64,000 nt of DNA, taken from the IMG/VR virus record IMGVR_UViG_3300028388_003280, positions 54,197-118,196 of that record; one strand, 5' to 3'. Shown here piece after piece: positions 1-33,087 of the stretch. The stretch comes from a virus. The translations under genes and the position numbers were made by a program. The notes beneath the pieces were generated by a model that was not told the DNA's origin, made no database searches, and saw only the letters and a program-made list of their open reading frames with translations. Within the stretch, counting starts at the first letter, position 1. Each line of letters begins with the position of its first letter.

Positions 1-15
1 CTTTGAGGAGCAACT

Positions 16-714
16 ATGAAAATCGCACTTGGCATTGGGACAATAAACAGGGCAGACATTCTACATCGAAGCCTCGAGGACTTGTCTGAAAATTTTGCAG
101 AGATGCTTACTGATTTTGTCATCATTGACAACGGAAATCAGAACATCGTGATACCGGATAACTTGCCACAGAATATCATCCGTCCAGCCAAGAATCAAGG
201 TTGCGGTGGGAGCTGGTCAATGATTATGGATCACTTTGTTGATAGGCCAGACATTGACCACATCATCATGCCAAGTGACGATGTCATTTTGGGCAAACGT
301 TTTGCAGACGATCTAGAGACAGCGCTTTCACAGCCATATGATGTACTGTTACCAGAGGTTAACTATCACTGGTCTGTTGTCTCAATTTCAAAGCATTGCT
401 GGAAGACTGTTGGTCGATTCGATCCAATCTTTTATCCTGCATACCATGAAGATTGGGACTACTGGTATAGGGTTGAGCTTGCTGGTATGAGTCTAACCCG
501 CACGCCCCTATTCAATCCGGGTGAATTTACAAACGGTGGCTCAATTTCAAAGGACAGATCCCTCGCAAATCATCAGACTGGCAGCTATTACCAGAGAAAG
601 TGGGGTGGCTCGAGGAACGGCAAGACTGAAAAGTACACTGAGCCATATAACGGTGACGTTGAGATGCAGAGGCAGATGCACATACTTGGTCAGCGAAATC
701 TTGGAAGGATTTGA
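16..714 (+). CDS. Glycosyltransferase family 2 (GT-A fold)
   Basis: IIDNGN, NQGCGGSW, SDDV (DxD-like), VGRFDPIFYPAYHEDWDYWYR motifs; GGAG RBS. Confidence 0.85.
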   Translation: MKIALGIGTINRADILHRSLEDLSENFAEMLTDFVIIDNGNQNIVIPDNLPQNIIRPAKNQGCGGSWSMIMDHFVDRPDIDHIIMPSDDVILGKRFADDLETALSQPYDVLLPEVNYHWSVVSISKHCWKTVGRFDPIFYPAYHEDWDYWYRVELAGMSLTRTPLFNPGEFTNGGSISKDRSLANHQTGSYYQRKWGGSRNGKTEKYTEPYNGDVEMQRQMHILGQRNLGRI

Positions 715-715
715 C

Positions 716-1729
716 ATGCAACCACGCAAACTATTCATTGACGACAGCCAGGACCCATGGATCACTTGGGACTCAGACCTATACAAACTACAGGAAGCTT
801 CCAGGGGTACACCCAAGGATATGCCAGGTTTCTATGGCATCGAGGTCGTAGCTAACCCATGGATGGCAGACCTGTTCTTCATCAACCACAACACAATCGA
901 CATCCGTGATGAGCTGTTCAAGGGCAAGGACGTGTTTGTCTTCATGCCTGAGTTTCCACAGAACGCACAAGAGCAGCTGAAGACACTCCAGGATGTCAAG
1001 TACGCAGATGACAACAATTGGACCGTGGTCACCGAGAGCCAAGAGCTCTATGATAAGCTCCAGGGTCTAGGATTGAAGCAGGAGCCGTGGCTGTGGCGCC
1101 GACCAAGCAGAGTGTCAGCAGACGAGGTGTTCAATGAGACCCCACTCAATGAACGCAAGTGCAAGATCGTAGCTGTGTTTGATGCCGGACATCCGCTCAG
1201 CCATGCTGCTGAGCTCGTCAAGGGATATCTCAGTGCGTTCATGGTCCTCCGCGATGACTACAACACAGAGCCAATTCTTGAGATCTATAGCCACTCTGAT
1301 ATGCCGTTTGAGCCATTCAATGAGATCCACTTCCAAGGTATGACGCCCAACAAGCGCATGTTCAAGGCGCTCAGGGACGCCACACTGTTCATCTTCCCAT
1401 CAGAGACGGACAAGTATCCTAACACCATGATGGAGGCTGCACAGCTTGGCGTACCATCAATTCAATTCTGGGATGATAGCAGCCCCATCCGGCAACACCT
1501 GATGTTCCCAGACCAAGAATGGTCCAGGTTCAGGACTTCAGAAGAGCTCGCCGACAAGATCGTTGAGCACTTCAGCACATTTGATGATTTGGACCGCGTC
1601 AACGACACCATCAACCACCAGAAGTCGGTGGTCGCCGAGGAGTCCATGGAGTACGGCTGTGAGATCTTCATCACAGAGATGGCTAGAAGGCTATCCTTGG
1701 CAATGTTTGCTGACGAAGAGGCCCTGTAA
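716..1729 (+). CDS. Glycosyltransferase, GT-B (GT1/GT4-like C-terminal domain)
   Basis: ALRDATLFIFPSETDKYPNTMMEAAQLGVP motif; start taken at ATG 716 just after the upstream stop. Confidence 0.75.
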   Translation: MQPRKLFIDDSQDPWITWDSDLYKLQEASRGTPKDMPGFYGIEVVANPWMADLFFINHNTIDIRDELFKGKDVFVFMPEFPQNAQEQLKTLQDVKYADDNNWTVVTESQELYDKLQGLGLKQEPWLWRRPSRVSADEVFNETPLNERKCKIVAVFDAGHPLSHAAELVKGYLSAFMVLRDDYNTEPILEIYSHSDMPFEPFNEIHFQGMTPNKRMFKALRDATLFIFPSETDKYPNTMMEAAQLGVPSIQFWDDSSPIRQHLMFPDQEWSRFRTSEELADKIVEHFSTFDDLDRVNDTINHQKSVVAEESMEYGCEIFITEMARRLSLAMFADEEAL

Positions 1730-1738
1730 TATTCGGGG

Positions 1739-1767
1739 TGTACAATGGTCTGCCGGTCTGGTAGGAT
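1739..1767 (+). promoter_or_regulatory. Early-class promoter
   Basis: TGTACA-N17-TAGGAT with CTGG before -10; matches a motif found 9 times. Confidence 0.65.
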
Positions 1768-1785
1768 CGACAGCGGAGGTATATC

Positions 1786-2520
1786 ATGAGCTCCATCAAC
1801 GAGCACAGGCTAGCGCCTGTTATTCACAAACTAGCAGATCAGGTGCGGGCCGAGAAGTTCGTCACTGATAAGTCAGGCGTCAAGCTTGTCGAGATCATTG
1901 CGGAGCCCATCACTCTTGATCCAACACAGCCAATCCTCGAGTTTGGCGAAGCCCGCAAGACGCCCATGAAGTACGTCAATGCTGAGCTTGAATGGTATCT
2001 GAGCATGGATCTCAGGGTAGACGAAATTGCCAAACATGCTGGCATCTGGGCCAAGGTTGCGGATTCAAACGGCTTTGTCAACTCCAACTATGGGTGGTGC
2101 ATCTTCTCACCACAGAACGGTGCACAGTACGAAAACTGTCTTAGTGAACTCATCGCCTTCCCCGACTCTCGCCGCGCGGTGATGATCTACAACCGGCCGG
2201 AGATGTGGCAGGATTACAACCGTGATGGCATGTCGGACTTCATGTGCACGTTTGCAACGCAGCACCTGATTCGCGACGACAAGCTGGTCTCCATCGTCAA
2301 CATGCGAAGCAACGATTTCGTATTCGGCTTCTTCAACGACTTCTACTGGCAGGCGTGGGTGCACAATCACCTTCTGCACGCACTACAACGAGCGGCGTAC
2401 CCTGATCTCGCGAGTGGCAAGATCGTGTGGGTCGCCAATTCCCTACATGTATACGAAAGACACTTCCCAATGTTGCTCAATATTGAGCGCTGGTTGGAAA
2501 CGAAAGGACACGATGGCTGA
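1786..2520 (+). CDS. gp42: dCMP hydroxymethylase (T4 gp42-like, thymidylate synthase superfamily)
   Basis: VNSNYGW, PDSRRAVMIY, DYNRDGMSDFMCT, VNMRSNDFVFGFFNDFYWQ, SLHVYERH; Asp at the position of T4 gp42 Asp179 (Asn in ThyA). Confidence 0.88.
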   Translation: MSSINEHRLAPVIHKLADQVRAEKFVTDKSGVKLVEIIAEPITLDPTQPILEFGEARKTPMKYVNAELEWYLSMDLRVDEIAKHAGIWAKVADSNGFVNSNYGWCIFSPQNGAQYENCLSELIAFPDSRRAVMIYNRPEMWQDYNRDGMSDFMCTFATQHLIRDDKLVSIVNMRSNDFVFGFFNDFYWQAWVHNHLLHALQRAAYPDLASGKIVWVANSLHVYERHFPMLLNIERWLETKGHDG

Positions 2521-3124
2521 GTGCTTCGTTTACTGGATCACACCAGATCCGTCGTTGGACATATCCACATGTGGGTATGTTGGCGTGTCCAAGGATCCGG
2601 CGAAGAGGCATAAGGTTCATATCCGAGAAGGCCGTGTTCCTTCAGGTACTAAGCAGTTCATCATTTTCTCTGGCACCCGTAAGCAGTGCTTCGCCAAGGA
2701 ACGAGAGCTAAGACCTAAGAAAGGGATTGGGTGGAATCGTGCAGTTGGTGGCGCGCATGGATATCGCGAGGGGTTCGTGATGCCTCAATCTGCTATCGAT
2801 AAGTCACGAGAGAATAGAGACTATGGGGACCCCTGGAACAAAGGCCTAACCCACGCTGAAGACCCAAGGATTGCCACTGGAAACACTGACCCGTCTCGGG
2901 CAGATCGAATGAGGAAAGTGGGCAAATCAAATCTAGGTAAGACATCGCCACACAAAGGAAAGCACCACGGTCCACGACCACACACAAAAGAGCACACTGA
3001 AAAGCGGCTTGCTGCAACTAGGAAGTTTTGGGATGATCCCGAGAAATCAGAGCATCTCAGAAAACAACGATCTGAACGTATGAAGAAATATCATGAACAG
3101 AGGAGACTAAATGGTAAAGCCTAA
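2513..3124 (+). mobile_element. Free-standing GIY-YIG homing endonuclease with NUMOD3-like basic repeats
   Basis: FVYWI...GYVGVSKDPAKRHKVH...E...GWN; PWNKGL and SPHKGKHH..HTKEH repeats. Confidence 0.75.
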
Positions 3125-3788
3125 CCTAATCGCGCACGAGCTGGGACATGTCCTGTTTTCGTATCTGTATGACAAGGATTCATACCCAACCTCTATGGTT
3201 CTGAAATCTGATGGCAACACAGCGGCGTGTGTCAACTTCGACGAGTACGAGGATCTCCCCGTTGCCAATGGTCAGATTGCTCGGATCCCGTCGGCGTCGT
3301 ACCTTGGTGGCATGTTCGGCGAGTTCATCTGGAACGGTCGGTGCCGAGTCATGGGCATCCGCGCAGACATGGATGAGCTTCTGACTGAATACCGGTACAT
3401 CAAGAATGGTAAGCGTCCTGGCGGTAAGGGCGGAGTTCACGATAGTGAGCACCGATACCGTCGTTCACAGTCCAAGCTCTTCAAGGAGCTATGGGCTTGG
3501 TTCTACACAGATCGAGACCAGTGGTCATATGGCGGCATGATGAAGCGGTGGATGGACTGCCCGAATAACCGGTCGGGTACAATCATGACGACCAGCCGCT
3601 TCAAGAAGCGACTGCCTGAGACCTACAAGGTATTTGAGACGTTCTGCTCAGACATTGATCTTGACGAGTTCGTCAACTCGGTCACTGATATTCAGAGGTC
3701 GAGCTCGACCAGGCTTCAGAGTCGAACCCTACGTAAGTACGGCCGCCGTATCATCCCAGATACGGTCATGCATCCGGAGGACATCTAA
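3111..3788 (+). CDS. Zn metallopeptidase-like protein (M41/FtsH protease-domain-like)
   Basis: IAHELGHV (HExxH) and YLGGMFGE. Confidence 0.55.
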   Translation: MVKPNLIAHELGHVLFSYLYDKDSYPTSMVLKSDGNTAACVNFDEYEDLPVANGQIARIPSASYLGGMFGEFIWNGRCRVMGIRADMDELLTEYRYIKNGKRPGGKGGVHDSEHRYRRSQSKLFKELWAWFYTDRDQWSYGGMMKRWMDCPNNRSGTIMTTSRFKKRLPETYKVFETFCSDIDLDEFVNSVTDIQRSSSTRLQSRTLRKYGRRIIPDTVMHPEDI

Positions 3789-4105
3789 TGGATTGGCTAC
3801 CTCTAGCTTCTTACATCACAAATGGCATCCTCGTTGTAATAGTAGCCCTGGGAATCATCGTGATTCGGGGTATGCTAGCATCAAGAGATAGTATGATTGA
3901 CAGCTACAAGCGCCGAGATTTGACTGGACGTGAACGTGAGGATATCAGGAGACGGCTGTTGGCTAGTGGAACATCTGCGATCCACCCACATGAAATCTTG
4001 GACCTGATCTACACGTTCCGCAGTGTCGAGCTCGGTCAATACGAAGATAAAGACCCATACGTGCCAGCGGACCCATATGACGACATTGAGGAGTACATTG
4101 GATGA
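3788..4105 (+). CDS. Hypothetical membrane protein
   Basis: N-terminal hydrophobic helix; coupled start/stop. Confidence 0.6.
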   Translation: MDWLPLASYITNGILVVIVALGIIVIRGMLASRDSMIDSYKRRDLTGREREDIRRRLLASGTSAIHPHEILDLIYTFRSVELGQYEDKDPYVPADPYDDIEEYIG

Positions 4106-4356
4106 TGAAGACTGTGCTCAAACGAATTGCACCCGGATACTACTCGGGCCTTGGGAAAACGACCGTCGACGGCAAGCCAGTAAAGCTGAAGATCAACGTT
4201 ATCAGAGCTCAAGCTGGAGCTTGGTATTGGCAAATTGACAATGAAGACGCACACGATTGGTACCCAACGAAAAGGGACGCAAAGGATGCCCTCGACCGCG
4301 TCCTTGCAACGGGGTTCAGGCTAGATCCCCGCTACGGTCGAGTCATCGATCGGTGA
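4102..4356 (+). CDS. Hypothetical protein
   Basis: ATGA-coupled ORF. Confidence 0.6.
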   Translation: MMKTVLKRIAPGYYSGLGKTTVDGKPVKLKINVIRAQAGAWYWQIDNEDAHDWYPTKRDAKDALDRVLATGFRLDPRYGRVIDR

Positions 4357-4399
4357 TCTTCCGAGGCCTCGCGGGTAATTAGAGATACAGGAGCACACA

Positions 4400-4765
4400 G
4401 TGCCTAGGAATAGAGATTACTGGAACGCACTCGAGGCCCACATACGTACGAACCCCCACGACCTGTATGGTATGGGTTCAACACATGGCGCAAACGCACT
4501 GCGCCGGCTCGCCAAGCTCATCGCCCGTCATGCCAAGATCCACAAGAGCAGGGAAGACACTATTGCGTACGCTCATAGCAAACTCGCTGATCTTCATGCT
4601 ACTGGTTATATCCAAGCTCTCAGTCCTGGAGCCTGTAAGGGCATCTGCGAGCTCATTGCACCGATATATGACTTCAATGGATGGAAGCCGATCGAAGCAG
4701 ATGAGCTCCTCACAGCAGGAGGCGACGATGCACAGCCACAAGTTCAACTACCCCGCAAACATTAA
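4400..4765 (+). CDS. Hypothetical protein
   Basis: AGGAG RBS, GTG start. Confidence 0.6.
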   Translation: MPRNRDYWNALEAHIRTNPHDLYGMGSTHGANALRRLAKLIARHAKIHKSREDTIAYAHSKLADLHATGYIQALSPGACKGICELIAPIYDFNGWKPIEADELLTAGGDDAQPQVQLPRKH

Positions 4766-4988
4766 CCCCTGCCGCTTCTGCGGTAGTGAGGACGTAGCGC
4801 TCGACGCTGCACTTATCCGTTTGAATGACGGACACCTCACAACGCTATTCAATCTCGGATGCACAGAATGTGGCTATACCACTCGAGACTATGAATACCC
4901 TGACATTGCTGCCCACGCTTGGAACATGGCGGCCAAGCTTGAGATCAATGCGCTCCTAGACGCGGTGGCAGATCCTACAGAGCAATGA
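4728..4988 (+). CDS. Lar-like (restriction alleviation) zinc-finger protein
   Basis: PCRFCGS...GCTECG...AAHAWN; AGGAGG RBS. Confidence 0.6.
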   Translation: MHSHKFNYPANINPCRFCGSEDVALDAALIRLNDGHLTTLFNLGCTECGYTTRDYEYPDIAAHAWNMAAKLEINALLDAVADPTEQ

Positions 4989-5191
4989 GGGCCTACGACA
5001 TCATGCCAATTGGTGGATCCTGGCCGTGGATCCAGGCTGAGCGCTTCGACGGAAAGTCGATGTACCGCTTAGCCCTGCCTCCAGATGTGCTTACAGAATG
5101 GCATGTACATTTACCCGATGCTATAGTAGAGTGGAACGACATGGCAGCAGTACGCTCAATGAAGGAGATCGTCGACAGTGAAGAAGATTAG
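4985..5191 (+). CDS. Hypothetical protein
   Basis: ATGA-coupled; AIVEWN resembles the Lar-like C-terminus. Confidence 0.55.
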   Translation: MRAYDIMPIGGSWPWIQAERFDGKSMYRLALPPDVLTEWHVHLPDAIVEWNDMAAVRSMKEIVDSEED

Positions 5192-5687
5192 CGCCCTTGC
5201 GGTGCTTTGCCTATTCATTGCCGTCTTTCAGACAGTATCGGATAACAGGCATGAGCCACGAATGCACAATTGGGAAATCGTCACGGATGATCCGGGAATC
5301 CCGGTTCTTCCAGCGCCGCTCCACATTCCAGTCACCGTCACAATCTATCACCCAGTTCCCGAGCAGACCGACTCAACCCCAAACATCGTCGCCTCCGGCA
5401 AGAAGATCAAGATCCACCGCGCACGCTATTACCGCTACGTCGCTGTATCACGCGATCTGCACAAGCGTTGGGGCGGACCTCTCTCGTTTGGCGACATCAT
5501 TGAGCTCAAAGATGCGGGCTATCTTTCGGGCTTCTACATCGTCGAAGACACGATGAACGCCCGTTTCAAGAATCATGTAGACGTCTTGCTTTCGCCGGGC
5601 GATCCGCTAGCAAAGTTCCCTAACGCACTACTGGTGATGACCAATGGCACAACACGGATGGAAGACCCTCCACGGGCAGCCTATTGA
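5178..5687 (+). CDS. 3D-domain (MltA-like) cell-wall protein with signal peptide
   Basis: Signal peptide; VTIYHPVPEQTDSTPNIVASG, VAVSRDL, VEDTMNARF...HVDV. Confidence 0.75.
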   Translation: MKKISALAVLCLFIAVFQTVSDNRHEPRMHNWEIVTDDPGIPVLPAPLHIPVTVTIYHPVPEQTDSTPNIVASGKKIKIHRARYYRYVAVSRDLHKRWGGPLSFGDIIELKDAGYLSGFYIVEDTMNARFKNHVDVLLSPGDPLAKFPNALLVMTNGTTRMEDPPRAAY

Positions 5688-6195
5688 AAGCATCTATGAC
5701 GAACTCGCAACCGTTTTCAAGGAGGCGTATGAGCAAGACTACGACTGCTTTGTCTACGTCGGAACAGACAGCCAGAACCTCGGCTCACGAACCTCGTTCG
5801 TACAAGTGGTTGCTGTCCACATTCTCCGTGACACTGGCCGTGGTGATGGTGGCCGTGTTTACTATATCCGCCATCTGGAGCGTAGGTATCGCTCTCGTCG
5901 CGAGCGTCTTCTCAGGGAAGCAGAGTTGAGCATCAACCTTGCCCAGAAGATTAACCCAGTTTGTGAAGAGCACGGGATTGAGTTTGAGGTCCATGCTGAC
6001 GTCCACTCGAGCCCTGGCCGCAATAACGAGAACAAGAGTCACGAGGTTCACGACGCTGTGGTTGGCTGGGTGAGCGGCATGGGATACAAGTGCGTCACCA
6101 AGCCTGGCGCCTTCGTTGCCAGCATCGTTGCAGATAGACACACCCGCGGGGTCAAGCAACCGCGAAGATTCAAGAAGCACAAGGCCAATAGCTGA
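5644..6195 (+). CDS. RNase H-like YkuK family protein
   Basis: VYVGTDSQ, RLLREAELS, EVHADV, ASIVADRH. Confidence 0.8.
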   Translation: MAQHGWKTLHGQPIESIYDELATVFKEAYEQDYDCFVYVGTDSQNLGSRTSFVQVVAVHILRDTGRGDGGRVYYIRHLERRYRSRRERLLREAELSINLAQKINPVCEEHGIEFEVHADVHSSPGRNNENKSHEVHDAVVGWVSGMGYKCVTKPGAFVASIVADRHTRGVKQPRRFKKHKANS

Positions 6196-6196
6196 G

Positions 6197-6202
6197 TATT
6201 TA
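6197..6202 (+). promoter_or_regulatory. Late-class promoter TATTTA
   Basis: GTATTTAGA upstream of GGAGG RBS; recurrent before virion genes. Confidence 0.6.
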
Positions 6203-6219
6203 GATATTGGAGGTCCAAC

Positions 6220-6423
6220 ATGGATTCAAGACTAGCACGAAAGATTCAGTCAGAGGCAAACGATCTCATGCGCCTCGGCAAGCAGGCCGACAAGCTACGG
6301 CTGATGGAAGAAGACGACGTCGAGGAGCTGTATGATATCTCGCAGGACCTCATCGCATCAATCCAGGCACTAGAAGAGGTCGTTACTGCGCTTCGCAAGG
6401 AGGCACGCAAGAATGAGCGATAA
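6220..6423 (+). CDS. Small acidic helical protein (paralog A1)
   Basis: MDSRLARKIQSEANDL; similar to 6706..6897. Confidence 0.7.
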   Translation: MDSRLARKIQSEANDLMRLGKQADKLRLMEEDDVEELYDISQDLIASIQALEEVVTALRKEARKNER

Positions 6424-6706
6424 GCTACCCAAGTATACCCGCGTCATCGTAGAAGGCGAAGAGCAATTCATTCTACGTGAAGCACAGTTCGACCCACGAA
6501 AAGCAAAGCGGCTGCTGAGCCAATTCGGAAGTGGTCTGTTCGGCTATGCAGAAGATGTTAAGGGCGCCCTCGGAGAACAGGATCCTGCATACGCAGCAGA
6601 GTTGATCGAAGACGTTATATACGATCTTCAAGACCTCGCTGCAGACATGGAAGAGCTCCACGACGAAGCTCGTGCAGCAATGGACGACGACCCGGAGGCC
6701 TTCTAA
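6413..6706 (+). CDS. Small acidic helical protein (paralog B1), LxE site
   Basis: KLPKYTRVI...ILREA; similar to 6894..7166. Confidence 0.7.
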   Translation: MSDKLPKYTRVIVEGEEQFILREAQFDPRKAKRLLSQFGSGLFGYAEDVKGALGEQDPAYAAELIEDVIYDLQDLAADMEELHDEARAAMDDDPEAF

Positions 6707-6897
6707 TGGATGCACGACTAACACGAGAAATGCAAGCATTCGTCAATGATCTCAAGTCATACTCTCAGGATCTTGCTCGGATCCGCGTTGCATCAAATCC
6801 AGATGCAGAGGAAGAAGTACAAGACGTCATCGAAGGCATTGTATACATGCGCGATGAACTCGAGTCTCTAGCATACAAACTAAGGAGACAGGGATGA
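6706..6897 (+). CDS. Small acidic helical protein (paralog A2)
   Basis: MDARLTREMQAFVNDL. Confidence 0.7.
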   Translation: MDARLTREMQAFVNDLKSYSQDLARIRVASNPDAEEEVQDVIEGIVYMRDELESLAYKLRRQG

Positions 6898-7166
6898 GCA
6901 AGCTACCACGGTATCGCAAGGTCATCAATGAGCATTCAGATGTTCCGGAGCGTTGGGTCCTTCGCGAAGGGGTTGAGAGCGACCTGAAGATGTACTCACG
7001 AACATTGGCTGATATGTCCAAGGACCTGAAGAAGGCTATGGGCATGGAACCAGCAAAAGCTGCTGAAGCCCTCAGCGATCTAGTAAACGATTGCAATGAG
7101 CTTCTGAACGAACTCGACGGACTTCAAGACGATCTCCGCGATGAACTCGAGGACCTAGGATACTAA
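6894..7166 (+). CDS. Small acidic helical protein (paralog B2), LxE site
   Basis: KLPRYRKVI...VLREG. Confidence 0.7.
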   Translation: MSKLPRYRKVINEHSDVPERWVLREGVESDLKMYSRTLADMSKDLKKAMGMEPAKAAEALSDLVNDCNELLNELDGLQDDLRDELEDLGY

Positions 7167-7169
7167 TCC

Positions 7170-7391
7170 ATGGCATCTATTTCTGAAGAGCGCGCTGACC
7201 AGATGATCGCCCAAATCATGGACGAGTATCCGCCTGGCAAGAAGCGCAAGTTTCTGTTGAAGCAAGTCTTCACGGCCTTCATGAAGGGCATGCCTAAGAA
7301 GCAAGCCGTCATGCGGGCCAACAACTTCGTTCTGAAGTACAATCTTGACCAGACCGACAAGATCCCACTCTTTCGGTATGGCCGAGGGTAG
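7170..7391 (+). CDS. Hypothetical basic protein
   Basis: ORF with phage-typical codon usage. Confidence 0.6.
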   Translation: MASISEERADQMIAQIMDEYPPGKKRKFLLKQVFTAFMKGMPKKQAVMRANNFVLKYNLDQTDKIPLFRYGRG

Positions 7392-7420
7392 TGTGCAACG
7401 CCTACCCGTTCTGGTATAGT
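7392..7420 (+). promoter_or_regulatory. Early-class promoter
   Basis: TGTGCA-N17-TATAGT, CTGG before -10. Confidence 0.7.
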
Positions 7421-7448
7421 CTACTCACCCTAGCACAGAGGTTCCAGC

Positions 7449-7790
7449 ATGGAAATGACTCTCATGGAAGTCAAGATCGGCCCACGGGCCGTTAGAATCG
7501 TAGCCGGCGATCCGAAGACCCACGTCAGTCGGATTCCCCACACGACCGTAGAAATCGTCGATCAGTACGGCGAGGTCGAATACGCCTATCTGTACGAACA
7601 CACCCACCCCATGAATGAAATGGAAGCGTGGAAGCAGTTTGGTGACATCTGTCGGCAAGAGGCAGAAGTCGCAATGGATAGGGCGGCTGTGCGGCACGGA
7701 GTTGAGGCAATTGCCGCCAACGGCTTCATCGGTGACTGCATCATCGGCGTTCGTCCGAAGGCAACTGAAAACGATTCTCAACTAGCGTAG
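7449..7790 (+). CDS. Hypothetical protein
   Basis: GAGG RBS downstream of promoter. Confidence 0.6.
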   Translation: MEMTLMEVKIGPRAVRIVAGDPKTHVSRIPHTTVEIVDQYGEVEYAYLYEHTHPMNEMEAWKQFGDICRQEAEVAMDRAAVRHGVEAIAANGFIGDCIIGVRPKATENDSQLA

Positions 7791-7832
7791 AAACTGCCCT
7801 AAAAAGTGTGCACATTTTTTTGTCGGAAACTG

Positions 7833-7861
7833 TGTGCACGCCCCTACTCGGCTGGTATGAT
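7833..7861 (+). promoter_or_regulatory. Early-class promoter with AT-rich upstream element
   Basis: TGTGCA-N17-TATGAT, CTGG; A/T tracts at 7801-7821. Confidence 0.72.
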
Positions 7862-7921
7862 CTATACACATCGACGCGGTGCGAAGCGCCGCCAGAACAA
7901 ACCAAGCCTACGAGGTGCACA

Positions 7922-8425
7922 ATGACCGTCAACGCCAAGCAGGCGTTCGTTGCGGTGCGCGAAGCACAGCAGCGCGTCAACGACCGGGTCCTGACCCTTT
8001 CGCAGATCTCCGAGCTCCGCAAGGAGACCCTTGGATGGGACAGCCCCGTCACGCAGTTCCGCAAGTACGCCGACGAGCAGATCAAGGTTCTGCCGCGCGG
8101 TGACAAGCAGAAGAAGATTCTGCGCTCGCAGAAGGCCGACCTCAGCAAGATGGTCAACGCCCTCCGCGATTCCATGTCCTCGTACGAGGACCTCATCCGC
8201 ATGAAGCGCGCGGAGGCTCGTGATAACAAGAGCGCCGTGCGTTTTGAGAAGGCCCGTATTCAGATCGTGGACGCAGTGCGTCGCATGATTGAAGAGGACC
8301 GCGCCAACGCCTACTCCTTCCTGCTCACGCAGTTGGAGCGTGCCGAGGCGACGCAGACGGCTGACGCCGTCGACACCGACGCAGAGAGCGTCACTGACGA
8401 AGAGCATGTCACTATCACTGACTGA
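7922..8425 (+). CDS. Hypothetical helical protein, likely highly expressed
   Basis: GAGGT RBS; strongly C/G-ending codons; own promoter and downstream hairpin. Confidence 0.7.
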   Translation: MTVNAKQAFVAVREAQQRVNDRVLTLSQISELRKETLGWDSPVTQFRKYADEQIKVLPRGDKQKKILRSQKADLSKMVNALRDSMSSYEDLIRMKRAEARDNKSAVRFEKARIQIVDAVRRMIEEDRANAYSFLLTQLERAEATQTADAVDTDAESVTDEEHVTITD

Positions 8426-8447
8426 CAAGCAGACAACTGAACTGCTC

Positions 8448-8494
8448 GGCTACGCCCGTCCGTGCTCGCCCTCCTGCACGGCGCGGGCGTAGTC
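8448..8494 (+). terminator. GC-rich hairpin after 7922..8425
   Basis: GGCTACGCCCGTCCGTGC / GCACGGCGCGGGCGTAGTC imperfect inverted repeat; weak U-tract. Confidence 0.5.
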
Positions 8495-8513
8495 TCGTTC
8501 CCCCTAAGGTATC

Positions 8514-9137
8514 ATGAGAACAATAGCAATAGACATCGACGGCACACTCCGCAACCTAGACATCGCACTTGAAAAGTACTTAGAAGTCGACCACCCACAC
8601 AGAGTCAAAACCTTCACCAGCAATCCGGAGTCGTGGAATAAACTCGACCTCGCATTTGGTGGAGACCGCGACGCAGTCATGGATTGGCTCTATGGAACTC
8701 GTGCGTTCCAGACGTTTGGGCAGGCACCAAAGATGTACCGCGATGTCATTGACCACCTCAATGCATTGGACAAACGGGCTAGAGCAGTTGGGGATAGGAT
8801 AATCCTCTCCTCTGTTCAGCGTGAGCAGTCAATCACTGCGACCCTATTCTGGCTGGCAAAGAACGGATGCAAGGTGCATCACTATCGTTTCTTTGATAGC
8901 TTTGATGAAAAGATGGGGGCCGGATACGACATCGTCGTTGACGACCATCCACAGGTTCTGGAAACGGCCAAGGACTTCGGGTCCGAGGCTATCGTGGTTC
9001 CGCATCCGTACAATGAACACCTCACTACGGAGGACGGATACAAGCGCCTTGACTACGAAGGCGAGAAGCCGACAGGTCTAGCCGGTCTAGCAGATCTGGT
9101 CGGCCTCGGCACATACCAAATTGTCGAAGGAGACTAA
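8514..9137 (+). CDS. HAD-family 5'(3')-deoxyribonucleotidase
   Basis: IAIDIDGTLRN (DxDG) and DIVVDDHP, VPHPYN. Confidence 0.8.
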   Translation: MRTIAIDIDGTLRNLDIALEKYLEVDHPHRVKTFTSNPESWNKLDLAFGGDRDAVMDWLYGTRAFQTFGQAPKMYRDVIDHLNALDKRARAVGDRIILSSVQREQSITATLFWLAKNGCKVHHYRFFDSFDEKMGAGYDIVVDDHPQVLETAKDFGSEAIVVPHPYNEHLTTEDGYKRLDYEGEKPTGLAGLADLVGLGTYQIVEGD

Positions 9138-9139
9138 GT

Positions 9140-10291
9140 ATGTCGATCACCAAGAAGGACATCGAGGACGTCATTGGTAAGCTTGAAGAAGGCGACTACC
9201 GTGCATTGTTCCTATGTCCCGATTTTGAAAAGCCATCCGGTGGAGTGGGCCTGATCTACGATCACGTCCGCATCCTCAACGAGCTGGGCTTCAATGCCTC
9301 GGTCGTCCACCAGAAGGATGGTTTCGTGCCTGAGTGGCTGGGAGACCGAGCCGAGGGCGTGCCTATCATCTACACGGAGAAAGGCGACCTGAACATCAAC
9401 ATGCAGGACTTTTTCTTCATCCCTGAGGGGATGACGAATGTCATGCAGCAGATGCAGCAGCAGAACGTGCCAGCCAAGAAGATCGTCTTCTGTCAGAACT
9501 GGTACTACATCCTGAACGCACTGCAGCCCGGCCAGACCTGGCAGAGCCTTGGAATCGGCGACTGCTTGTCGGTCAGTGAATTCCAGACACGCTACATCCA
9601 GAGCATTATGCCAGGCATGCGTTGCAAGAATGTCGTCGGCAGCATTGATCCTGAGGTGTTCTACCCGCCTGAGAGCGATGTTGAGAAGAAGCCAATCGTT
9701 AGCTTCTACCCATCTCGTGATCGTGGTGGCATGAAGAGCACCAACGTCATCAAGACGTTCTACCTCCTCTTCCCGCACTTCAAGTGGATCCAGTTCCGCC
9801 AGATGGGCGGTCTTGAGACCGAGGACTTCGCTGCGGCTCTTCGTGAGTCTGCCTTCTACGTTCACTTCGATGAGTACAGCTCGTGGGGCACTGCACCTAT
9901 TGAGGCATGGCGAAGCGGTTGTCACGTCGCAGGCTGGGACGGACTCGGCGGATCTGAGTACATGCGTCCCGTCAACCTCAGCGATTCCGGTGGTCACAAG
10001 ACTGGCAACATGTGGATCGCGCCGAATGGTGACATTGTGAAGCTTGCTCTGTTGATCGGTAACATGATCGAGCAGTGGATCACCGACAACATCGACAAGC
10101 AGATCGTCAAGAACGCCAAGGCTGCGTGTGAGAACTACACACCAGAAGCAGAAAAGGATTCGATCCTCCGTGCACACAACGAGTACCGGGAAGATCGCAT
10201 CAAGGAGCTCCAGGGCTTTGCTGATAAGCTTCCGGAGATCGCTGACACCGAGAACATGGAGGTAGTGAGCAATGACGCGCAAGGTAGCTGA
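9140..10291 (+). CDS. Glycosyltransferase, GT-B fold
   Basis: PSGGVGLIYDHVRILNELG; ALRESAFYVHFDEYSSWGTAPIEAWRSGCHVAGWDGLGGSEY. Confidence 0.8.
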   Translation: MSITKKDIEDVIGKLEEGDYRALFLCPDFEKPSGGVGLIYDHVRILNELGFNASVVHQKDGFVPEWLGDRAEGVPIIYTEKGDLNINMQDFFFIPEGMTNVMQQMQQQNVPAKKIVFCQNWYYILNALQPGQTWQSLGIGDCLSVSEFQTRYIQSIMPGMRCKNVVGSIDPEVFYPPESDVEKKPIVSFYPSRDRGGMKSTNVIKTFYLLFPHFKWIQFRQMGGLETEDFAAALRESAFYVHFDEYSSWGTAPIEAWRSGCHVAGWDGLGGSEYMRPVNLSDSGGHKTGNMWIAPNGDIVKLALLIGNMIEQWITDNIDKQIVKNAKAACENYTPEAEKDSILRAHNEYREDRIKELQGFADKLPEIADTENMEVVSNDAQGS

Positions 10292-11078
10292 TCTAGCTGT
10301 CATCATCCCGTCGCACGAGAAGACTGACACGCTGTTGAAGGCGATCGATTCTGTGTTTGCGCAGACGACCCATCCCAGCATCGTCCTCGTTGCAACGAAG
10401 GATGTTCTGAGCACCATCGACGACGACCGAGCCCAGCGCATGACACTCGTTGAGGCTGGTGAGGATACTTCGTATCCGGCCTTGGTCAATCAGGGCATCG
10501 AGGCAGCCAAGGAGCTCGAGGGCGTGAACTGGTTCACCATTCTTGAGCACGACGATGAGTTGCTTCCTAAGGCAGTTGAAAACTTCGTTGCCTATAGCAG
10601 CCACGATCCCGAGACTCCAGTATGGTCTGGCCTCGGACTGCATGTAAATCGTGGCAACGGCGATGGTCCGCCAGAGCTCAAGAGCATGCTCAACGATGCC
10701 GCGTGGGCTCCGAACATCATGGAGACACCAGGAACCACGGATTTCAACGCCATGCTGCGCATGAACTTTGTGTTCCTGAACGGATGCTTCTTCAAGTTCG
10801 AGGTCGTCGATGAGGTTGGACTTCTCAAGCCGAACATGAAGATGTTCGCTGACTACGAGTTCCTGCTTCGCGTGGTCTACAACGGACACGACATCCGCAG
10901 CATCCCGAAGGCAACACACTACCACTATGCTGGTGGCAAGATGACTCAGGATCTGAACGGCACAAAGCGTGAAGAGACTGAATTCTGGGTGACTGCAGCT
11001 CGTAAGGAGTACTTCTACGAGTTCGACCGCGAGATTGCCTACGAACCCGCGGAGGAGACAGAAACCGCGGAGGCTTGA
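10272..11078 (+). CDS. Glycosyltransferase family 2
   Basis: VIIPSH, KAIDSVFAQT, NQGIE, ILEHDD, ADYEFLLR. Confidence 0.85.
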   Translation: MTRKVADLAVIIPSHEKTDTLLKAIDSVFAQTTHPSIVLVATKDVLSTIDDDRAQRMTLVEAGEDTSYPALVNQGIEAAKELEGVNWFTILEHDDELLPKAVENFVAYSSHDPETPVWSGLGLHVNRGNGDGPPELKSMLNDAAWAPNIMETPGTTDFNAMLRMNFVFLNGCFFKFEVVDEVGLLKPNMKMFADYEFLLRVVYNGHDIRSIPKATHYHYAGGKMTQDLNGTKREETEFWVTAARKEYFYEFDREIAYEPAEETETAEA

Positions 11079-11079
11079 C

Positions 11080-11808
11080 ATGACAGTCAAGAATTCCGCC
11101 GGTCTCACCAAGAAGCGCAAGCGTGAGTACTGGAGCGTCGAGCAGGAGGAGGCCGTTAAGGCCTACCTCCTGCTCGAGCCAGATTCTCGCGAAGCCGACA
11201 AGCTATTCGCAGGGAAGATCTATCCTTCCTTGCGGCAGCTTGTCGAGAACATTGCGTTCACCTACCACCTGACAACGTCCGAGACACCAGTTCGCGAACA
11301 GATCGATGACTGCATCGGACACGTCATCGTGAAGTTCAGGAAGTACGATCCAGACAAGGGCAGCAAGGCATTCTCATACTACGGCACCGTGGCCAAGAAC
11401 TACTTCATCCTCGCACAGAACAAGGCGTACAAGAAGAAGATCCAGACCACGGAGATTGATAGTACGGAGGGCTTGGAGATGATCCTCGACCTCGCCATCG
11501 ATCATGAGTTTGAGCGTGAGCTTGACAGTCCCGAGTTCTTCATTTCACACTTGGCGGACCATCTTGAGGGAATCCTGGAAACAGACATCAGTCTACACAC
11601 CAACACTTGGAAGTTGGGAGAGGCTATCGTCTACATTCTCAGGAACTATGCCCACATCCAGATGTCCACAAAGAACACGTTTTACCACATCGTGCGTGAG
11701 ATGACTGGGTTGACTACCAAGGAGATATCCAAGGCTCTAAAGGAGTTGAAGACAGTGTATGCAGAAGTGCGTGCTGACTTCATCGCCAACAGGACCACCA
11801 CCCTGTGA
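11080..11808 (+). CDS. Phage sigma-70-like transcription factor (putative late sigma)
   Basis: KFRKYDPDKGSKAFSYYGTVAKNY (region 2-like); C-terminal HTH-like REMTGLTTKEISKAL. Confidence 0.7.
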   Translation: MTVKNSAGLTKKRKREYWSVEQEEAVKAYLLLEPDSREADKLFAGKIYPSLRQLVENIAFTYHLTTSETPVREQIDDCIGHVIVKFRKYDPDKGSKAFSYYGTVAKNYFILAQNKAYKKKIQTTEIDSTEGLEMILDLAIDHEFERELDSPEFFISHLADHLEGILETDISLHTNTWKLGEAIVYILRNYAHIQMSTKNTFYHIVREMTGLTTKEISKALKELKTVYAEVRADFIANRTTTL

Positions 11809-12658: not shown

Positions 12659-13069
12659 ATGGCGTTCATCAACAAGCAAAAGCTCAACCGCACCAAGCCG
12701 TTGGGCATCCGCGCACCGATTAGGAACGCTGCACTCGACGGCGTCTTTGACGTCAACACCATAACAATAGAACAGGTGAAGAGTGAGCTGTATGTGCTCC
12801 TCTTCACGTCTAAGGGCTCGAGGGTTCAATTGCCTGAGTTCGGCTCACCTGTATACGATCTACAGTTTGAGCAGGTGAGCCAAAGAGACTTTCCAGAGAT
12901 CGGCCGATCTATCGAGGATGCAATTGCCAGGTGGGTGCCAAAGGCACTCGTGAACGATGTCGAGATCACTCAGCTGACCGAGGCACCGAACACCTTTGAG
13001 ATCGTCGTCCGGTTTTCACTTCGGGACAATCCGCGCCTCGAAGATAGTCTTGTTATCACAGCGAGGTAA
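12659..13069 (+). CDS. gp25: Baseplate wedge protein, gp25/GPW family
   Basis: LLFTSKGSRVQLPEFGS..LQFE...IEDAIARWVP. Confidence 0.88.
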   Translation: MAFINKQKLNRTKPLGIRAPIRNAALDGVFDVNTITIEQVKSELYVLLFTSKGSRVQLPEFGSPVYDLQFEQVSQRDFPEIGRSIEDAIARWVPKALVNDVEITQLTEAPNTFEIVVRFSLRDNPRLEDSLVITAR

Positions 13070-13072
13070 CCA

Positions 13073-14914
13073 ATGGCTCCACGAGCAAACATCAAGTACA
13101 TCAATAGGGACTTCGACAGTCTAAAGCAGGATCTGCTAGAGTACGTCAAGCTCACCTATCCTGATCGCTACAACGACTTCAGCGAAGCTTCAGTTGGCAT
13201 GATGCTGCTGGAGCTTAACGCGTATGTGGGGGATGTGCTTTCCTACCACCTCGACAAGCGGTACAACGAGATGTTTGTTGAGACAGCAGAGCAGCGGGAA
13301 TCGCTGTTCCGCTTGGCTCGCAATCTCGGGTACAAGCCCCGCGGGAAGAGAGCTAGCGCTACACTCGTTGATCTCAGCATCACAGTCCCTGTTGCAGGCG
13401 ATACATTCGACGCAGACTATGCACTCACCTACCAGCGAGGCATCCAGCTTCAATCAGAGTCTGGTGCATTCTTTGAGATCCTCGAGGACGTAGACTTCAG
13501 CAGCCCCAACAGCTTCCGCGGCGTTCCAAACCGCACAGTCACTCCGGTTATCGCAGGTGGCGAGATCGTCGAGTACGTGCTCACCAAGAGCGTCGTAGCT
13601 GTTGCAGGCCGATCAATTACAGAGACCCTGGAAGTCACCTCGTCAAATGCCCGCCCATACATGACATGGACGCTATCTGATGACAGCATCCTAGAGATCC
13701 GAAACCTCATCAACTCAGATGTGTCATCTGTGCCAACCACCGAGAACGGTTGGGTTTCAAACGCAGATGATATCTGGTACGAAGTTGATTACCTCTCACA
13801 AAGCCAGGTCTTTGTCGAGACCACGATCGGTGACACAGCGGCAACCCGCACAGGATTCTGGCGCAGCGTGCCTAAGCGGTACGAAGCAAACTTCAACGAG
13901 AACGGCGAGCTCACACTCACGTTCGGCGCAGGCACCCAGAACTTTGACCTATACGCAAACTGGCTGGCTGAAGGTGCCACTGCATTGCAGAGGCAACAGC
14001 TACTGAACAACACGTCCATGGGTGTCATCCCAGCCCCAGGATCTTACCTCCAGGTGAGATATAGAACTGGTGGAGGCGTGGAGTCGAATGTCCCTCAGGG
14101 AACGATCACCACAGTGTTGCAGGCTGATGTGTCGAACGTACCAGCTGCTGCGCCAGATACCATCACCCTGGCCAATGTTCAGTCATCTCTCGAGGTCAAC
14201 AACCCCATCCCAGCAATTGGTGGTGCGGACTACGAAACCGAGGACGAGATCAGAGCAGCTGCTGCTGGTAACTTCGCCACGCAGGAGAGAGTGGTCACGA
14301 TTGATGACTACATCTCCCGCGCTGCCCAGATGCCATCTCAGTATGGCACGGTCTTCCGCGTGTACGCAAACAATGACCAGTCAAACTTCGTCACCAGACT
14401 CTATGTCTTGACCAAGGATGAGAATGGCAAGCTGAAGAACACCGGCAACGACCTAGTGAAGCGGAACCTAGCAACCTATCTCGAGCAGTACAGACTGCTC
14501 AACGATGTGGTTGAGATCTATGATGGTCGCATCATCAACATTGGTGTTGACTTCACAGTGCTCGTCGAGTCTGGCTTGAACAAGCGCCAGGTCGTTTACC
14601 AGTGCATCCAAGAGCTCAACGACTACTTTGCCATCGACAATTGGCAGATGGCACAGACACTCTACATCTCGCAGATCACAGACATCTTGCGGGAGGTTCA
14701 GGGTGTCGTCAATGTCGCAAGCCTCAGCATCGTCAACAAGTACGGTGAGGGCTATAGCGATGACGTCCTACCCGAAGCACTGCTCCAGGGCCAGGTCGTT
14801 GACAGCACGGGTTCAAATGTTATCAGGCCCGTGAACAACGCCATCAAGTGTGCTGTGACGAGCATGTTTGAAGTCAAGTACCCGAACAGGGATATTGTAG
14901 GAAGGGCATTATAA
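13073..14914 (+). CDS. Baseplate wedge subunit (T4 gp6 / baseplate J-like)
   Basis: YINRDFDSLK, AYVGDVLSYHLD, GGADYETEDEIR, QERVVTIDDY. Confidence 0.88.
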   Translation: MAPRANIKYINRDFDSLKQDLLEYVKLTYPDRYNDFSEASVGMMLLELNAYVGDVLSYHLDKRYNEMFVETAEQRESLFRLARNLGYKPRGKRASATLVDLSITVPVAGDTFDADYALTYQRGIQLQSESGAFFEILEDVDFSSPNSFRGVPNRTVTPVIAGGEIVEYVLTKSVVAVAGRSITETLEVTSSNARPYMTWTLSDDSILEIRNLINSDVSSVPTTENGWVSNADDIWYEVDYLSQSQVFVETTIGDTAATRTGFWRSVPKRYEANFNENGELTLTFGAGTQNFDLYANWLAEGATALQRQQLLNNTSMGVIPAPGSYLQVRYRTGGGVESNVPQGTITTVLQADVSNVPAAAPDTITLANVQSSLEVNNPIPAIGGADYETEDEIRAAAAGNFATQERVVTIDDYISRAAQMPSQYGTVFRVYANNDQSNFVTRLYVLTKDENGKLKNTGNDLVKRNLATYLEQYRLLNDVVEIYDGRIINIGVDFTVLVESGLNKRQVVYQCIQELNDYFAIDNWQMAQTLYISQITDILREVQGVVNVASLSIVNKYGEGYSDDVLPEALLQGQVVDSTGSNVIRPVNNAIKCAVTSMFEVKYPNRDIVGRAL

Positions 14915-15229: not shown

Positions 15230-15491
15230 ACCAGCTAGCATCAGAAGCTACCAACTCGCAGGCATCAACGAGAGTGACGATAGGAAGGCGGAGCGCGCAG
15301 CTGCAAAGGCTGTTCACGCAATGGAAAAGACGCACACTATTCTCACCAGCTTGGGTGAATTTGAAAAGGCTGTCGCTTCGTATGTCAAGCGTGAACTCGG
15401 CAAGGGCGGCAAAGTGCCAAGCCCACAAGCAATCAAGAAGTGGGCTTTGAACTACTTCGACGATGAAGAGATCAGACCAAAGAGGAAGTAG
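15216..15491 (+). CDS. Putative head-packaged protein (LAGINE/S leader)
   Basis: MKKNKPASIRSYQLAGINES. Confidence 0.6.
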   Translation: MKKNKPASIRSYQLAGINESDDRKAERAAAKAVHAMEKTHTILTSLGEFEKAVASYVKRELGKGGKVPSPQAIKKWALNYFDDEEIRPKRK

Positions 15492-15495
15492 ACTG

Positions 15496-16032
15496 ATGAA
15501 GAGTTACGATAAAGAAATGTACGTCCAAAATATGCATCTTAACCCGGCCACTCGGGTTCAGAATGAGAGAAAGCACTCAAACATTGCTGCATGTAAGACG
15601 TATGAAGAGAATGTTGTTGGTAATGTTTTGGATGTTGGGTCAGATAATGGTACCCATACAATTTTGGTTGCTGAGTTTGATGGTGTTAATCAGATCACTG
15701 GCCTTACCCTGTCGGCCGAGGGTGTGCAGGCTTCTTTTGATACGTTGGAATTCATCCATCCAAAGTATCGCCAAAAGCTTAACTTTATTGAGGGCAACGC
15801 GTGTGATATGAACATGATCGAGGCTGCCTTTATTGGTGAGCTATATCGTGTATTGAAGCCTGGCCGGTCTTTGATCTTGTCGATTCCATATGAGCGTGCT
15901 CATGACTGCGAAAATCACGTAACATATTGGAATGAGAAATCTCTATCTGAATTGATGACGAAGCATGGCTTCACTGTCGAAGACGTTCATCAGGGCATCG
16001 GGCAATCTTTGAATGGAAGGTTCACAAAGTAA
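15496..16032 (+). CDS. Class I SAM-dependent methyltransferase (possibly internally deleted)
   Basis: VLDVGSDNG, FIEGNA, ELYRVLKPGRSLILSIP; T-rich codon usage. Confidence 0.75.
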   Translation: MKSYDKEMYVQNMHLNPATRVQNERKHSNIAACKTYEENVVGNVLDVGSDNGTHTILVAEFDGVNQITGLTLSAEGVQASFDTLEFIHPKYRQKLNFIEGNACDMNMIEAAFIGELYRVLKPGRSLILSIPYERAHDCENHVTYWNEKSLSELMTKHGFTVEDVHQGIGQSLNGRFTK

Positions 16033-32749: not shown

Positions 32750-32750
32750 T

Positions 32751-33029: not shown

Positions 33030-33087
33030 CAGAGCTGCCCCTCGCGTATGCGAGGGGTGAGGCCCAGCTCTAACGAAAGGCAGATCA

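Follow-up and report, generated by a model that had tools for sequence, protein, structure and literature searches.

In phages that glycosylate hydroxylated cytosine, a glycosyltransferase gene can adjoin the gene for a thymidylate-synthase homologue, as T4 b-gt and the arabinosyltransferase gene of RB69 do. According to the available sections of a 2026 study (PMC13326640), many enzymes called 'gp42-like', RB69 gp48 among them, are flavin-dependent 5-hydroxy-dCMP synthases that had long been mis-annotated as gp42, and the clusters of RB69, DLP3 and RL38J1 hold kinases of the thymidylate-kinase-like (Tmk-like) type. In the part of Pyle et al. available to us (bioRxiv 10.1101/2023.12.21.572611), phage glycosyltransferases of the GT-A and GT-B folds put mono-, di- and trisaccharides of hexose, N-acetylhexosamine (HexNAc) and heptose on 5-hydroxymethylcytosine (5hmC; hereafter hmC). 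That survey found related glycosyltransferases on ~25,000 contigs (~95% in IMG/VR), with GT-B types accompanying thymidylate-synthase homologues in ~28% of cases and ~65% of the contigs showing no neighbouring base-modification enzyme. Here we analyse a locus of this kind in a 64-kb window, the whole stretch of DNA considered, which is the last 64 kb (positions 54,197 to 118,196) of the 118,196-bp linear IMG/VR record IMGVR_UViG_3300028388_003280 (G000). The record is estimated to be 57% complete, with ~43% of the genome missing. An original prediction made from the DNA letters had read window positions 16 to 11,078 as a multi-step cytosine hypermodification system comprising a gp42-like dCMP hydroxymethylase, four glycosyltransferases and a deoxynucleotidase. 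Its claimed novelty, GT-A plus GT-B pairs adding a di- or oligosaccharide to hmC, is already in print; the kind of system it proposed is known, and the ambiguity of such loci is acknowledged in the same work (bioRxiv 10.1101/2023.12.21.572611, available part). We find a phage that very probably makes hmC beside a glycan-building apparatus that, with about even confidence, is not dedicated to it.

Three genes on one strand open the window:

16..714, plus strand: GT-A/GT2-like glycosyltransferase of 232 amino acids (aa); PHROG 29879 'galactosyl transferase', E 5.8e-17; GT2-like viral clusters in the ESM Atlas at TM 0.75-0.80.
716..1729, plus strand: GT4-type GT-B glycosyltransferase of 337 aa; its start is ATG 716 (not 521), one base past the stop of 16..714.
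1786..2520, plus strand: T4 gp42-type dCMP hydroxymethylase of 244 aa; PDB 1b49, signature residues, 49% identity to T4 gp42.

The product of 1786-2520 has a thymidylate-synthase fold with a catalytic Cys (PF00303, E 2.2e-16). Among PDB structures it matches T4 deoxycytidylate hydroxymethylase (1b49) at E 1.1e-59, the CMP hydroxymethylase MilA at 4.5e-13 and the best ThyA at 1.3e-7. The comparison of gp42 with ThyA that had been proposed as a check thus comes out far on the side of gp42, and the claimed gp42-like enzyme holds; identity is 49% to T4 gp42 and 24% to both RB69 gp48 and E. coli ThyA. Cys154, in SDFMCT, aligns with T4 Cys148 and E. coli Cys146. The alignment shows RSNDFVFGFFND, in which the FFND Asp occupies the E. 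coli ThyA N177 position, confirming the claim of an Asp where thymidylate synthase has Asn. The E. coli L143 position, three residues ahead of Cys154, is also acidic (Asp151). In PMC13326640, as far as its text is available, Asp at N177 goes with dCMP preference and an acidic residue at L143 with water access, and Asn occupies the E. coli D169 position in every 5-hydroxy-dCMP synthase tested. RB69 gp48 reads RSQN there, whereas 1786-2520 and T4 have Asp (RSND); the Asn of the RB69 gp48/DLP3 gp80 type is not found in our enzyme. The RSND Asp, together with Asp at the N177 and L143 positions, makes 5-hydroxymethyl-dCMP, not 5-hydroxy-dCMP, dTMP or 5-hydroxymethyl-dUMP, the well-supported predicted product.

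In the infected cell, such an enzyme would convert dCMP to 5-hydroxymethyl-dCMP, a Tmk-like kinase would phosphorylate the product and the phage polymerase would incorporate it. A thymidylate-kinase-like protein is encoded at genome positions 32541-33230 (PHROG 761, E 5.9e-16). A second IMG/VR phage, L008, has a kinase gene immediately ahead of its gp42-like gene, and the two kinases share 33% identity (E 1e-30). From these gene identities and signatures we infer that the phage makes hmC, which we regard as very likely. The original prediction had called for a search of the rest of the genome for further pathway enzymes and a separate ThyA or ThyX. This search added the Tmk-like kinase as well as an aminotransferase and methyltransferases; in the 118 kb of the record, it yielded no other ThyA or ThyX besides 1786-2520, and no detectable homologue of gp56 (dCTPase), the gp1 kinase, Dam, alpha-gt or beta-gt. 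Cytosine replacement may therefore be partial, or the missing genes may lie in the absent 43% of the genome. Because gp42 and the kinase are both absent from G002, the closest large relative (152 kb, 69% complete), which has ThyX instead, the hmC pathway looks like a recent gain. The next open reading frame (ORF) may mark gp42 as a mobile insertion:

2513..3124, plus strand: possible GIY-YIG-type homing endonuclease (weak; Pfam GIY-YIG E 0.037 only); overlaps the gp42 end by 8 bp; without a G002 homologue.

T4, too, has seg-type endonucleases beside gene 42/b-gt and gene 56.

Set against the T-even pathway to glucosyl-hmC, the locus shares a gp42 orthologue with all signature residues, an adjoining glycosyltransferase as with T4 b-gt, and a dCMP deaminase plus Dut. 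It differs in the T4 genes missing from the 118 kb, in a kinase that is thymidylate-kinase-like, and in that the glycosyltransferases beside gp42 are GT2-like and GT4-like, with orthologues in relatives that have no gp42. With the arabinosyl- and glycosyl-5-hydroxycytosine systems of RB69, DLP3 and RL38J1 (PMC13326640, available sections), it has in common a thymidylate-synthase homologue, a Tmk-like kinase, a GT4-type GT-B, a HAD phosphatase and sugar-nucleotide genes, and the same PDB neighbours recur for GT-B 716. Unlike those systems, the enzyme here keeps Asp at D169, hence a hydroxymethyl product is predicted, and the kinase is not adjacent to the gp42-type gene. Moreover, the HAD protein and GT-B here are without sequence similarity to RB69 gp51 and gp46/47, respectively: the HAD protein showed no relation to gp51, and profile comparison found no kinship of GT-B 716 with RB69 gp46, RB69 gp47 or T4 b-gt (hhalign of the GT-B-716 profile against b-gt, probability 0.05). 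The profiles AGT (PF11440) and T4-Gluco-transf (PF09198) find nothing at E<=1 anywhere in the 118 kb, and tblastn with T4 a-gt and b-gt stays at E>2, in line with the earlier statement that these glycosyltransferases are unlike T4 alpha- and beta-gt.

All four glycosyltransferases first proposed (16-714, 716-1729, 9140-10291 and 10272-11078) prove real by profile or structure matches. The GT2 assignment of 16-714 rests on PHROG 29879 and Atlas structure, the match to Pfam GT2 being E 0.1 only. This protein has 2 homologues only among 5.8 billion proteins, matches in 3 of 50,697 phage records (two records of a Synechococcus siphovirus and one Pontimonas phage), and no tblastn match in the G002 loci. 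GT-B 716-1729 reaches 24.2 bits against Pfam GT1, below the cut-off of 27. Its AlphaFold2 model (pLDDT 68.2) gives Foldseek matches to GT4-type GT-B structures at E 2e-7 to 2e-5, namely GtfA, SenB, BshA, MshA, PimA, 7qsg, 8x3q and a phage HY126 glycosyltransferase; the two-Rossmann GT4 fold has Foldseek probability 1.00, yet TM is only 0.3-0.5 at pLDDT 68. It has just 4 closer homologues (48-54% identity), the closest on 17.6- and 22.1-kb contigs. Tblastn of GT-B 716 and GT-B 9140 against the 50,697 phage records found nothing, nor did related-locus searches with single proteins (GT-B 716, GT-B 9140 and P0005, a GT-B-716 homologue), and a metagenome scan for related loci returned a 1.6-kb contig only. 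On L011, a fragment with a GT-B-716 homologue, a class-24 methyltransferase and an FkbM methyltransferase lie directly upstream, an arrangement that, as gene order goes, ties GT-B 716 to sugar methylation and not to gp42.

The sugar cluster to which these two genes belong begins ~8 kb upstream of the window and spans genome positions ~46.2 to 55.9 kb; the window opens inside an operon: the stop of a DegT aminotransferase at base 19 overlaps the start of 16-714 by ATGA. In order, this island comprises GT1, HD, a 286-aa protein, DUF6165, an FkbM methyltransferase, GT1, GT2, a class-24 methyltransferase, the DegT aminotransferase, GT-A 16-714 and GT-B 716-1729. The upstream glycosyltransferases are a GT1 of 383 aa (PHROG 7162), a GT1 of 354 aa and a GT2 of 263 aa. 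The FkbM methyltransferase scores 60 bits against TIGR01444 (cut-off 37.7), and the DegT/PseC/ArnB-like aminotransferase matches PF01041 at E 3e-72 while staying under the equivalog cut-offs of all NCBIfam models. Altogether, the 118 kb encode seven glycosyltransferases, two sugar-type methyltransferases and one aminotransferase. No membrane segment is predicted in any glycosyltransferase or sugar enzyme, and flippase, polymerase and priming-transferase families did not turn up in Pfam scans of the record.

If these glycosyltransferases served hmC, then they should co-occur with a C5-hydroxylating enzyme across relatives. We compared syntenic relatives recovered from IMG/VR, among them G001, G002 and G005. 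G001 (30.9 kb) carries, in order, an orthologue of GT-B 716 (33%), ThyX (PF02511, E 4e-57), a homologue of 3788-4105, the HAD gene, an orthologue of GT-B 9140 (55%), GT2, a homologue of 11035, gp25 and gp6. G002 has ThyX and no PF00303, Tet_JBP or C5-methylase match in its 152 kb. It nonetheless keeps GT1-383 (59% identity), HD, the 286-aa protein (45%), GT1-354 (38%), the class-24 methyltransferase and an orthologue of GT-B 716 (27%), as well as the second block of HAD (40%), GT-B 9140 (55%) and GT2 (33%); in a variable slot it has its own sugar C-methyltransferase (PF08484) and nucleoside-diphosphate-sugar 4,6-dehydratase. Thus, five of the seven glycosyltransferases (GT1-383, GT1-354, GT-B 716, GT-B 9140 and GT2 10272) have orthologues in the ThyX relatives G001 or G002, which show no PF00303 match, and the co-occurrence that would mark an hmC glycosyltransferase is not found for these five; the test covers five of seven, the two phage-specific ones having too few homologues. 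Directly behind its GT-B-716 orthologue, G001 has ThyX, and G002 has an IMPDH/GMP-reductase gene (E 1e-78) and then ThyX. Judged by this synteny, the GT-B/gp42 adjacency is the border between the sugar island and a variable nucleotide-metabolism slot, not a conserved pair. Three genes of this phage are lacking in G002, those for GT-A 16-714, the upstream GT2 and the DegT aminotransferase; they could have arrived with hmC or been re-aimed at it. Within 10 kb of the gp42-like genes of L008, L009 and L010, we found no homologue of this phage's glycosyltransferases.

The second block, whose gene identities and order (HAD/GT-B/GT2 at 8.5-11.1 kb) hold as predicted, like those of the GT2 and GT-B directly before gp42, lies next to structural genes:

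8514..9137, plus strand: HAD-superfamily phosphatase; PHROG 420 E 1.7e-12, PHROG 415 E 7.2e-8; motifs DIDGT, Ser, Lys, DD.
9140..10291, plus strand: retaining GT-B glycosyltransferase; PDB 8xsg (AmGGT) E 7.4e-19; conserved gene of the phage lineage.
10272..11078, plus strand: GT2 glycosyltransferase of 268 aa; PF13641 31.1 bits and PF00535 26.6 bits, both over cut-offs; travels with GT-B 9140.
11035..11808, plus strand: conserved 257-aa protein, always after the GT2; 28-48% orthologues in 8 loci; weak Sigma70_r2 match, E 0.13.
12659..14914, plus strand: baseplate wedge genes, gp25-like and gp6-like; PF04965 E 3.9e-15, PF04865 E 2.2e-5, PHROG baseplate wedge families; they anchor the second glycosyltransferase block.

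Upstream of gp25/gp6, GT-B 9140 and GT2 10272 (25-35% orthologues) recur with the 257-aa gene in 8 of 75 gp6-anchored loci, four of the 8 being records already seen among the syntenic relatives; none of the 75 has a gp42 homologue. GT-B 9140-10291 has 61 homologues at 43-77% identity, and its structural match, AmGGT (8xsg), is a retaining glucoside-glucosyltransferase (PMC12159676, available sections). A 425-aa ORF on the minus strand at 9212-10489 was discarded as a shadow frame, the plus-strand protein having the PDB relative and the homologues. The HAD protein has orthologues of 38-44% identity in 5 related records and is kept in relatives without gp42. It carries the HAD motifs, but 'deoxynucleotidase' is no more than a candidate name for it: 8514-9137 has no match to Pfam NT5C at E<=5 and none to the PDB by sequence or profile, and an orthologue in L012 comes just under the NT5C cut-off (24.6 bits against 24.8, E 2.7e-5).

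If the phage's DNA is protected by a modified base, then restriction-type sites might be avoided less than in a relative without gp42. We compared word counts with maximal-order Markov expectations. In this genome, 6-bp palindromes containing G/C are observed 1732 times against 1774 expected (0.98), with one six-mer at z<=-4. In G002, the same palindromes occur 998 times against 1422 (0.70), 20 of 56 are absent, and 13 six-mers lie at z<=-4; CATCAG is seen 7 times against 72 expected, CACCTC 1 against 35, ACATGT 1 against 27.5, and, among shorter words, CTCAG 16 against 100 and GGCC 89 against 201. Other relatives have palindrome ratios of 1.00 (G005, 47 kb), 0.78 (G006) and 0.74 (G007). These counts suggest that G002 behaves like a phage with unprotected DNA under heavy restriction pressure and that the gp42 phage does not.

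Because most of them also occur in sister phages without the hydroxymethylase, the glycosyltransferases are probably not a dedicated DNA-decorating system. From the synteny we infer, at an even balance of confidence, that the ancestral acceptor of the glycan is not DNA and is most likely the virion. An hmC pathway would then stand beside an older glycan apparatus in two parts, a hypervariable sugar island and a conserved HAD/GT-B/GT2 block by the baseplate genes. Soluble enzymes would build a tailored glycan, with amino and O-methyl sugars here and C-methyl 6-deoxy sugars in the sister phage. Its ancestral acceptor would be something other than hmC, most probably a component of the phage made in the cytoplasm, for instance a virion protein; in addition, one of 16-714, 716-1729 and the upstream GT2 may act on hmC. 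Virion glycosylation by mycobacteriophage glycosyltransferases is described in the available part of PMC12619734, citing Freeman et al. 2023. Like the systems that glycosylate mycobacteriophage capsids and tail tubes, this phage encodes several soluble glycosyltransferases; it adds methyltransferases and an amino-sugar enzyme, has a block close to structural genes and varies in content between relatives.

Several observations weigh against this explanation. No glycosylated virion protein is known in the lineage of this phage, unlike the mycobacteriophage case. The gap between GT-B 716-1729 and gp42 is 56 bp, on the same strand. In Table 1 of PMC13326640, within the available text, C5-hydroxylated cytosine is also glycosylated in all characterised phages that make it; the GT4-type GT-B and the GT-A fold are those known for DNA glycosyltransferases (available parts of PMC13326640 and bioRxiv 10.1101/2023.12.21.572611), and the Foldseek neighbours of GT-B 716 are those of proven DNA arabinosyl- and glycosyltransferases (PMC13326640, same sections). 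At only 69% completeness, G002 could encode a hydroxylase in the part that is missing. G005 (115 kb, 50% complete) has at the same locus a DNA-modification cassette, without GT1-354 and GT-B 716, and the locus may therefore be an anti-restriction hot spot at which the sugar island is one option. The cassette (L106:65-3533 and L105:18962-19627) comprises a weak dUTPase_2-like protein, a thymidylate-synthase homologue, an asparagine-synthase-like amidotransferase, an N6/N4 DNA-methylase-like protein and a sulfotransferase. Its thymidylate-synthase homologue (227 aa) has Asp at N177 and Asp at D169, with ThyX 3 kb downstream, and the cassette is, by its gene content, a candidate for a different, non-sugar cytosine hypermodification. 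As for the palindromes, G001 (19 kb, 1.04) and G008 (22 kb, 1.02), short fragments in which no thymidylate-synthase homologue was found, show no 6-mer avoidance, and the contrast with G002 may reflect different hosts. With hosts that differ and G002 incomplete, the palindrome contrast is suggestive, supportive rather than decisive.

More tentatively, the island and second block may together build a di- or oligosaccharide on hmC in DNA after replication, protecting it from restriction and CRISPR, as the original prediction had it; the sugars could possibly include an amino sugar and O-methyl sugars. The gp42/hmC part of that proposal stands, and the link to the glycosyltransferases is one of adjacency: gp42 comes immediately after GT-A and GT-B in one transcriptional direction, as the thymidylate-synthase homologues of T4 and RB69 adjoin b-gt and the arabinosyltransferase gene. 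There is also precedent in the available text of bioRxiv 10.1101/2023.12.21.572611, where GT-A/GT-B DNA glycosyltransferases form clusters with secondary glycosyltransferases by thymidylate-synthase homologues. Like those clusters, our locus is on an IMG/VR phage contig and combines GT-A and GT-B with secondary glycosyltransferases and genes for sugar modification, close to both a thymidylate-synthase homologue and structural genes. It differs in its predicted aminotransferase and O-methyltransferase tailoring, of which the available sections, whose reported sugars are hexose, HexNAc and heptose, show none. The lack of palindrome avoidance in this genome (0.98), the DNA-modification cassette at the same locus of G005 and a gene at 4467-4988 for a Lar-like restriction-alleviation domain protein (with a hydrophobic segment and without a G002 homologue) also fit. 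Against it, ThyX relatives, in which up to 152 kb yield no thymidylate-synthase homologue, TET or C5-methylase, carry orthologues of the same five glycosyltransferases, and G002, which holds them, strongly avoids restriction-type sites. The second block is bound to baseplate genes across deeper relatives, the gp42-like genes of L008, L009 and L010 have none of these glycosyltransferases near them, neither T4 glucosyltransferase family is represented, and profile comparison gives no similarity to RB69 gp46/47 or T4 b-gt. The ~65% of surveyed related contigs without a base-modification neighbour (bioRxiv 10.1101/2023.12.21.572611, available part) argue in the same direction.

Somewhat more doubtful still is that an old glycan island was re-aimed at the phage's own DNA after gp42 was gained, giving hmC with an oligosaccharide of 4-amino and O-methylated sugars. 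An acceptor switch of this sort, from the virion or another target in the sisters to DNA, is a prospect to which we assign the same modest weight. In the available parts of PMC13326640 and bioRxiv 10.1101/2023.12.21.572611, the literature compared, there is no report of such 4-amino- and O-methyl-sugar chemistry on any DNA.

The prediction had allowed, as its alternative, that the glycosyltransferases act on the virion or the host surface. This is now at least as likely as decoration of DNA, with the virion favoured and the host envelope improbable. In the envelope version, they would remodel a host glycan (lipopolysaccharide, capsule or a teichoic-type polymer), for example for superinfection exclusion or receptor masking, with gp42 unrelated. 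The nearest characterised GT4 and GT2 relatives do act on envelope glycans and glycolipids, and O-antigen-type clusters typically contain DegT, FkbM and class-24 methyltransferases. Yet the enzymes are without a predicted membrane segment, the Pfam scans gave no priming transferase, flippase or polymerase, the phage looks lytic and T4-like (no integrase family turned up in the same scans), and the conservation beside baseplate genes would be left unexplained. Least likely of all, the thymidylate-synthase homologue would not make hmC but be an ordinary thymidylate synthase, a dUMP hydroxymethylase or an RB69-type 5-hydroxy-dCMP synthase: the record shows no other thymidylate source (ThyA or ThyX) in 118 kb and such synthases were long mis-annotated as gp42 (PMC13326640, available sections), but the enzyme has Asp, not Asn, at N177, Asp at L143, Asp where the tested 5-hydroxy-dCMP synthases of that study have Asn (D169), and twice the identity to T4 gp42 (49%) that it has to RB69 gp48 or E. 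coli ThyA (24%).

Should the glycan be on DNA, amino- and methyl-sugar chemistry would be added to the hypermodifications of phage DNA, and with it new enzymes for 5hmC labelling. Should it be on the virion, as we favour, a T4-like myovirus would be glycosylating its virion with enzymes of its own, in a manner that varies between strains; mycobacteriophages are the case documented so far. Whichever holds, a gp42 phage with no avoidance and a ThyX sister with strong avoidance offer a natural experiment on how base modification relaxes restriction-site selection, and the locus cautions that adjacency of glycosyltransferases to a hydroxymethylase is insufficient for calling a DNA-glycosylation system.

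The lineage of the phage is apparent from the rest of the record, where 144 of 175 greedy ORFs lie on the plus strand. The 54 kb upstream of the window encode T4-type terminase, portal (PF07230, E 7e-77), prohead protease, sheath, gp19 and gp32, a gp23 capsid protein (E 1e-78) and a RecA-like UvsX, together with a DnaB-type helicase, class II ribonucleotide reductase, Dut, family-B polymerase and dCMP deaminase. The capsid protein is nearest to those of Flavobacterium phage immuto, Microcystis phage Mel-JY01 and an uncultured 484-kb phage (43-47% identity over ~70% of the length), relatives that mark the source, by protein similarity, as a distant T4-like myovirus. Megablast of window positions 1-11200 against the 50,697 phage records gave no match, and hence no nucleotide-level relative.

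A single six-mer is strongly depleted in the whole record: TGATCA occurs 0 times against 43.5 expected (z -6.6), while each of the other 15 NGATCN contexts is present 28-95 times and G002 has TGATCA 68 times against 70.8 expected. The pattern suggests that the host of this phage exerts a BclI-like or GATC-directed pressure of its own. We considered the absence as an argument against a bulky cytosine modification and dropped it, as GATC is depleted in the heavily glycosylated T4 and RB69 as well (67 against 201 and 14 against 93, respectively). GATC is wholly absent from the G006 and G008 fragments (0 against 44 and 0 against 55).

Some neighbouring genes deserve mention. At L008:5033-13197, the gp42-like gene (53% identity) stands with a guanylate kinase, a DAHP/KDO8P-synthase-family enzyme, a UDP-galactopyranose mutase, a sulfotransferase, the Tmk-like kinase and two RimK-type ATP-grasp ligases; two collagen-repeat proteins are encoded upstream of this block. 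In the window, 3111-3788 encodes an HExxH-motif protein conserved in relatives beside ThyX, and 5644-6195 an RNase H-like PF04308 protein with 51-59% identity in relatives. Amid the baseplate and tail genes, 15463-16032 encodes a class-I methyltransferase without a G002 homologue (Methyltransf_23, E 4.5e-6, 26.9 bits against a cut-off of 27). The adjoining ORFs 24474-25907 and 25907-27340, of 477 aa each and without a Pfam match, may be tandem paralogues. Finally, a 615-aa protein at genome positions 40165-42012 was rejected as a sugar-nucleotide synthase, having no PDB match and falling in a purely viral Atlas family with frequent DUF6267 or DUF5661; the protein itself has an N-terminal cytidylyltransferase-like motif, and G005 carries a 40% identical homologue.

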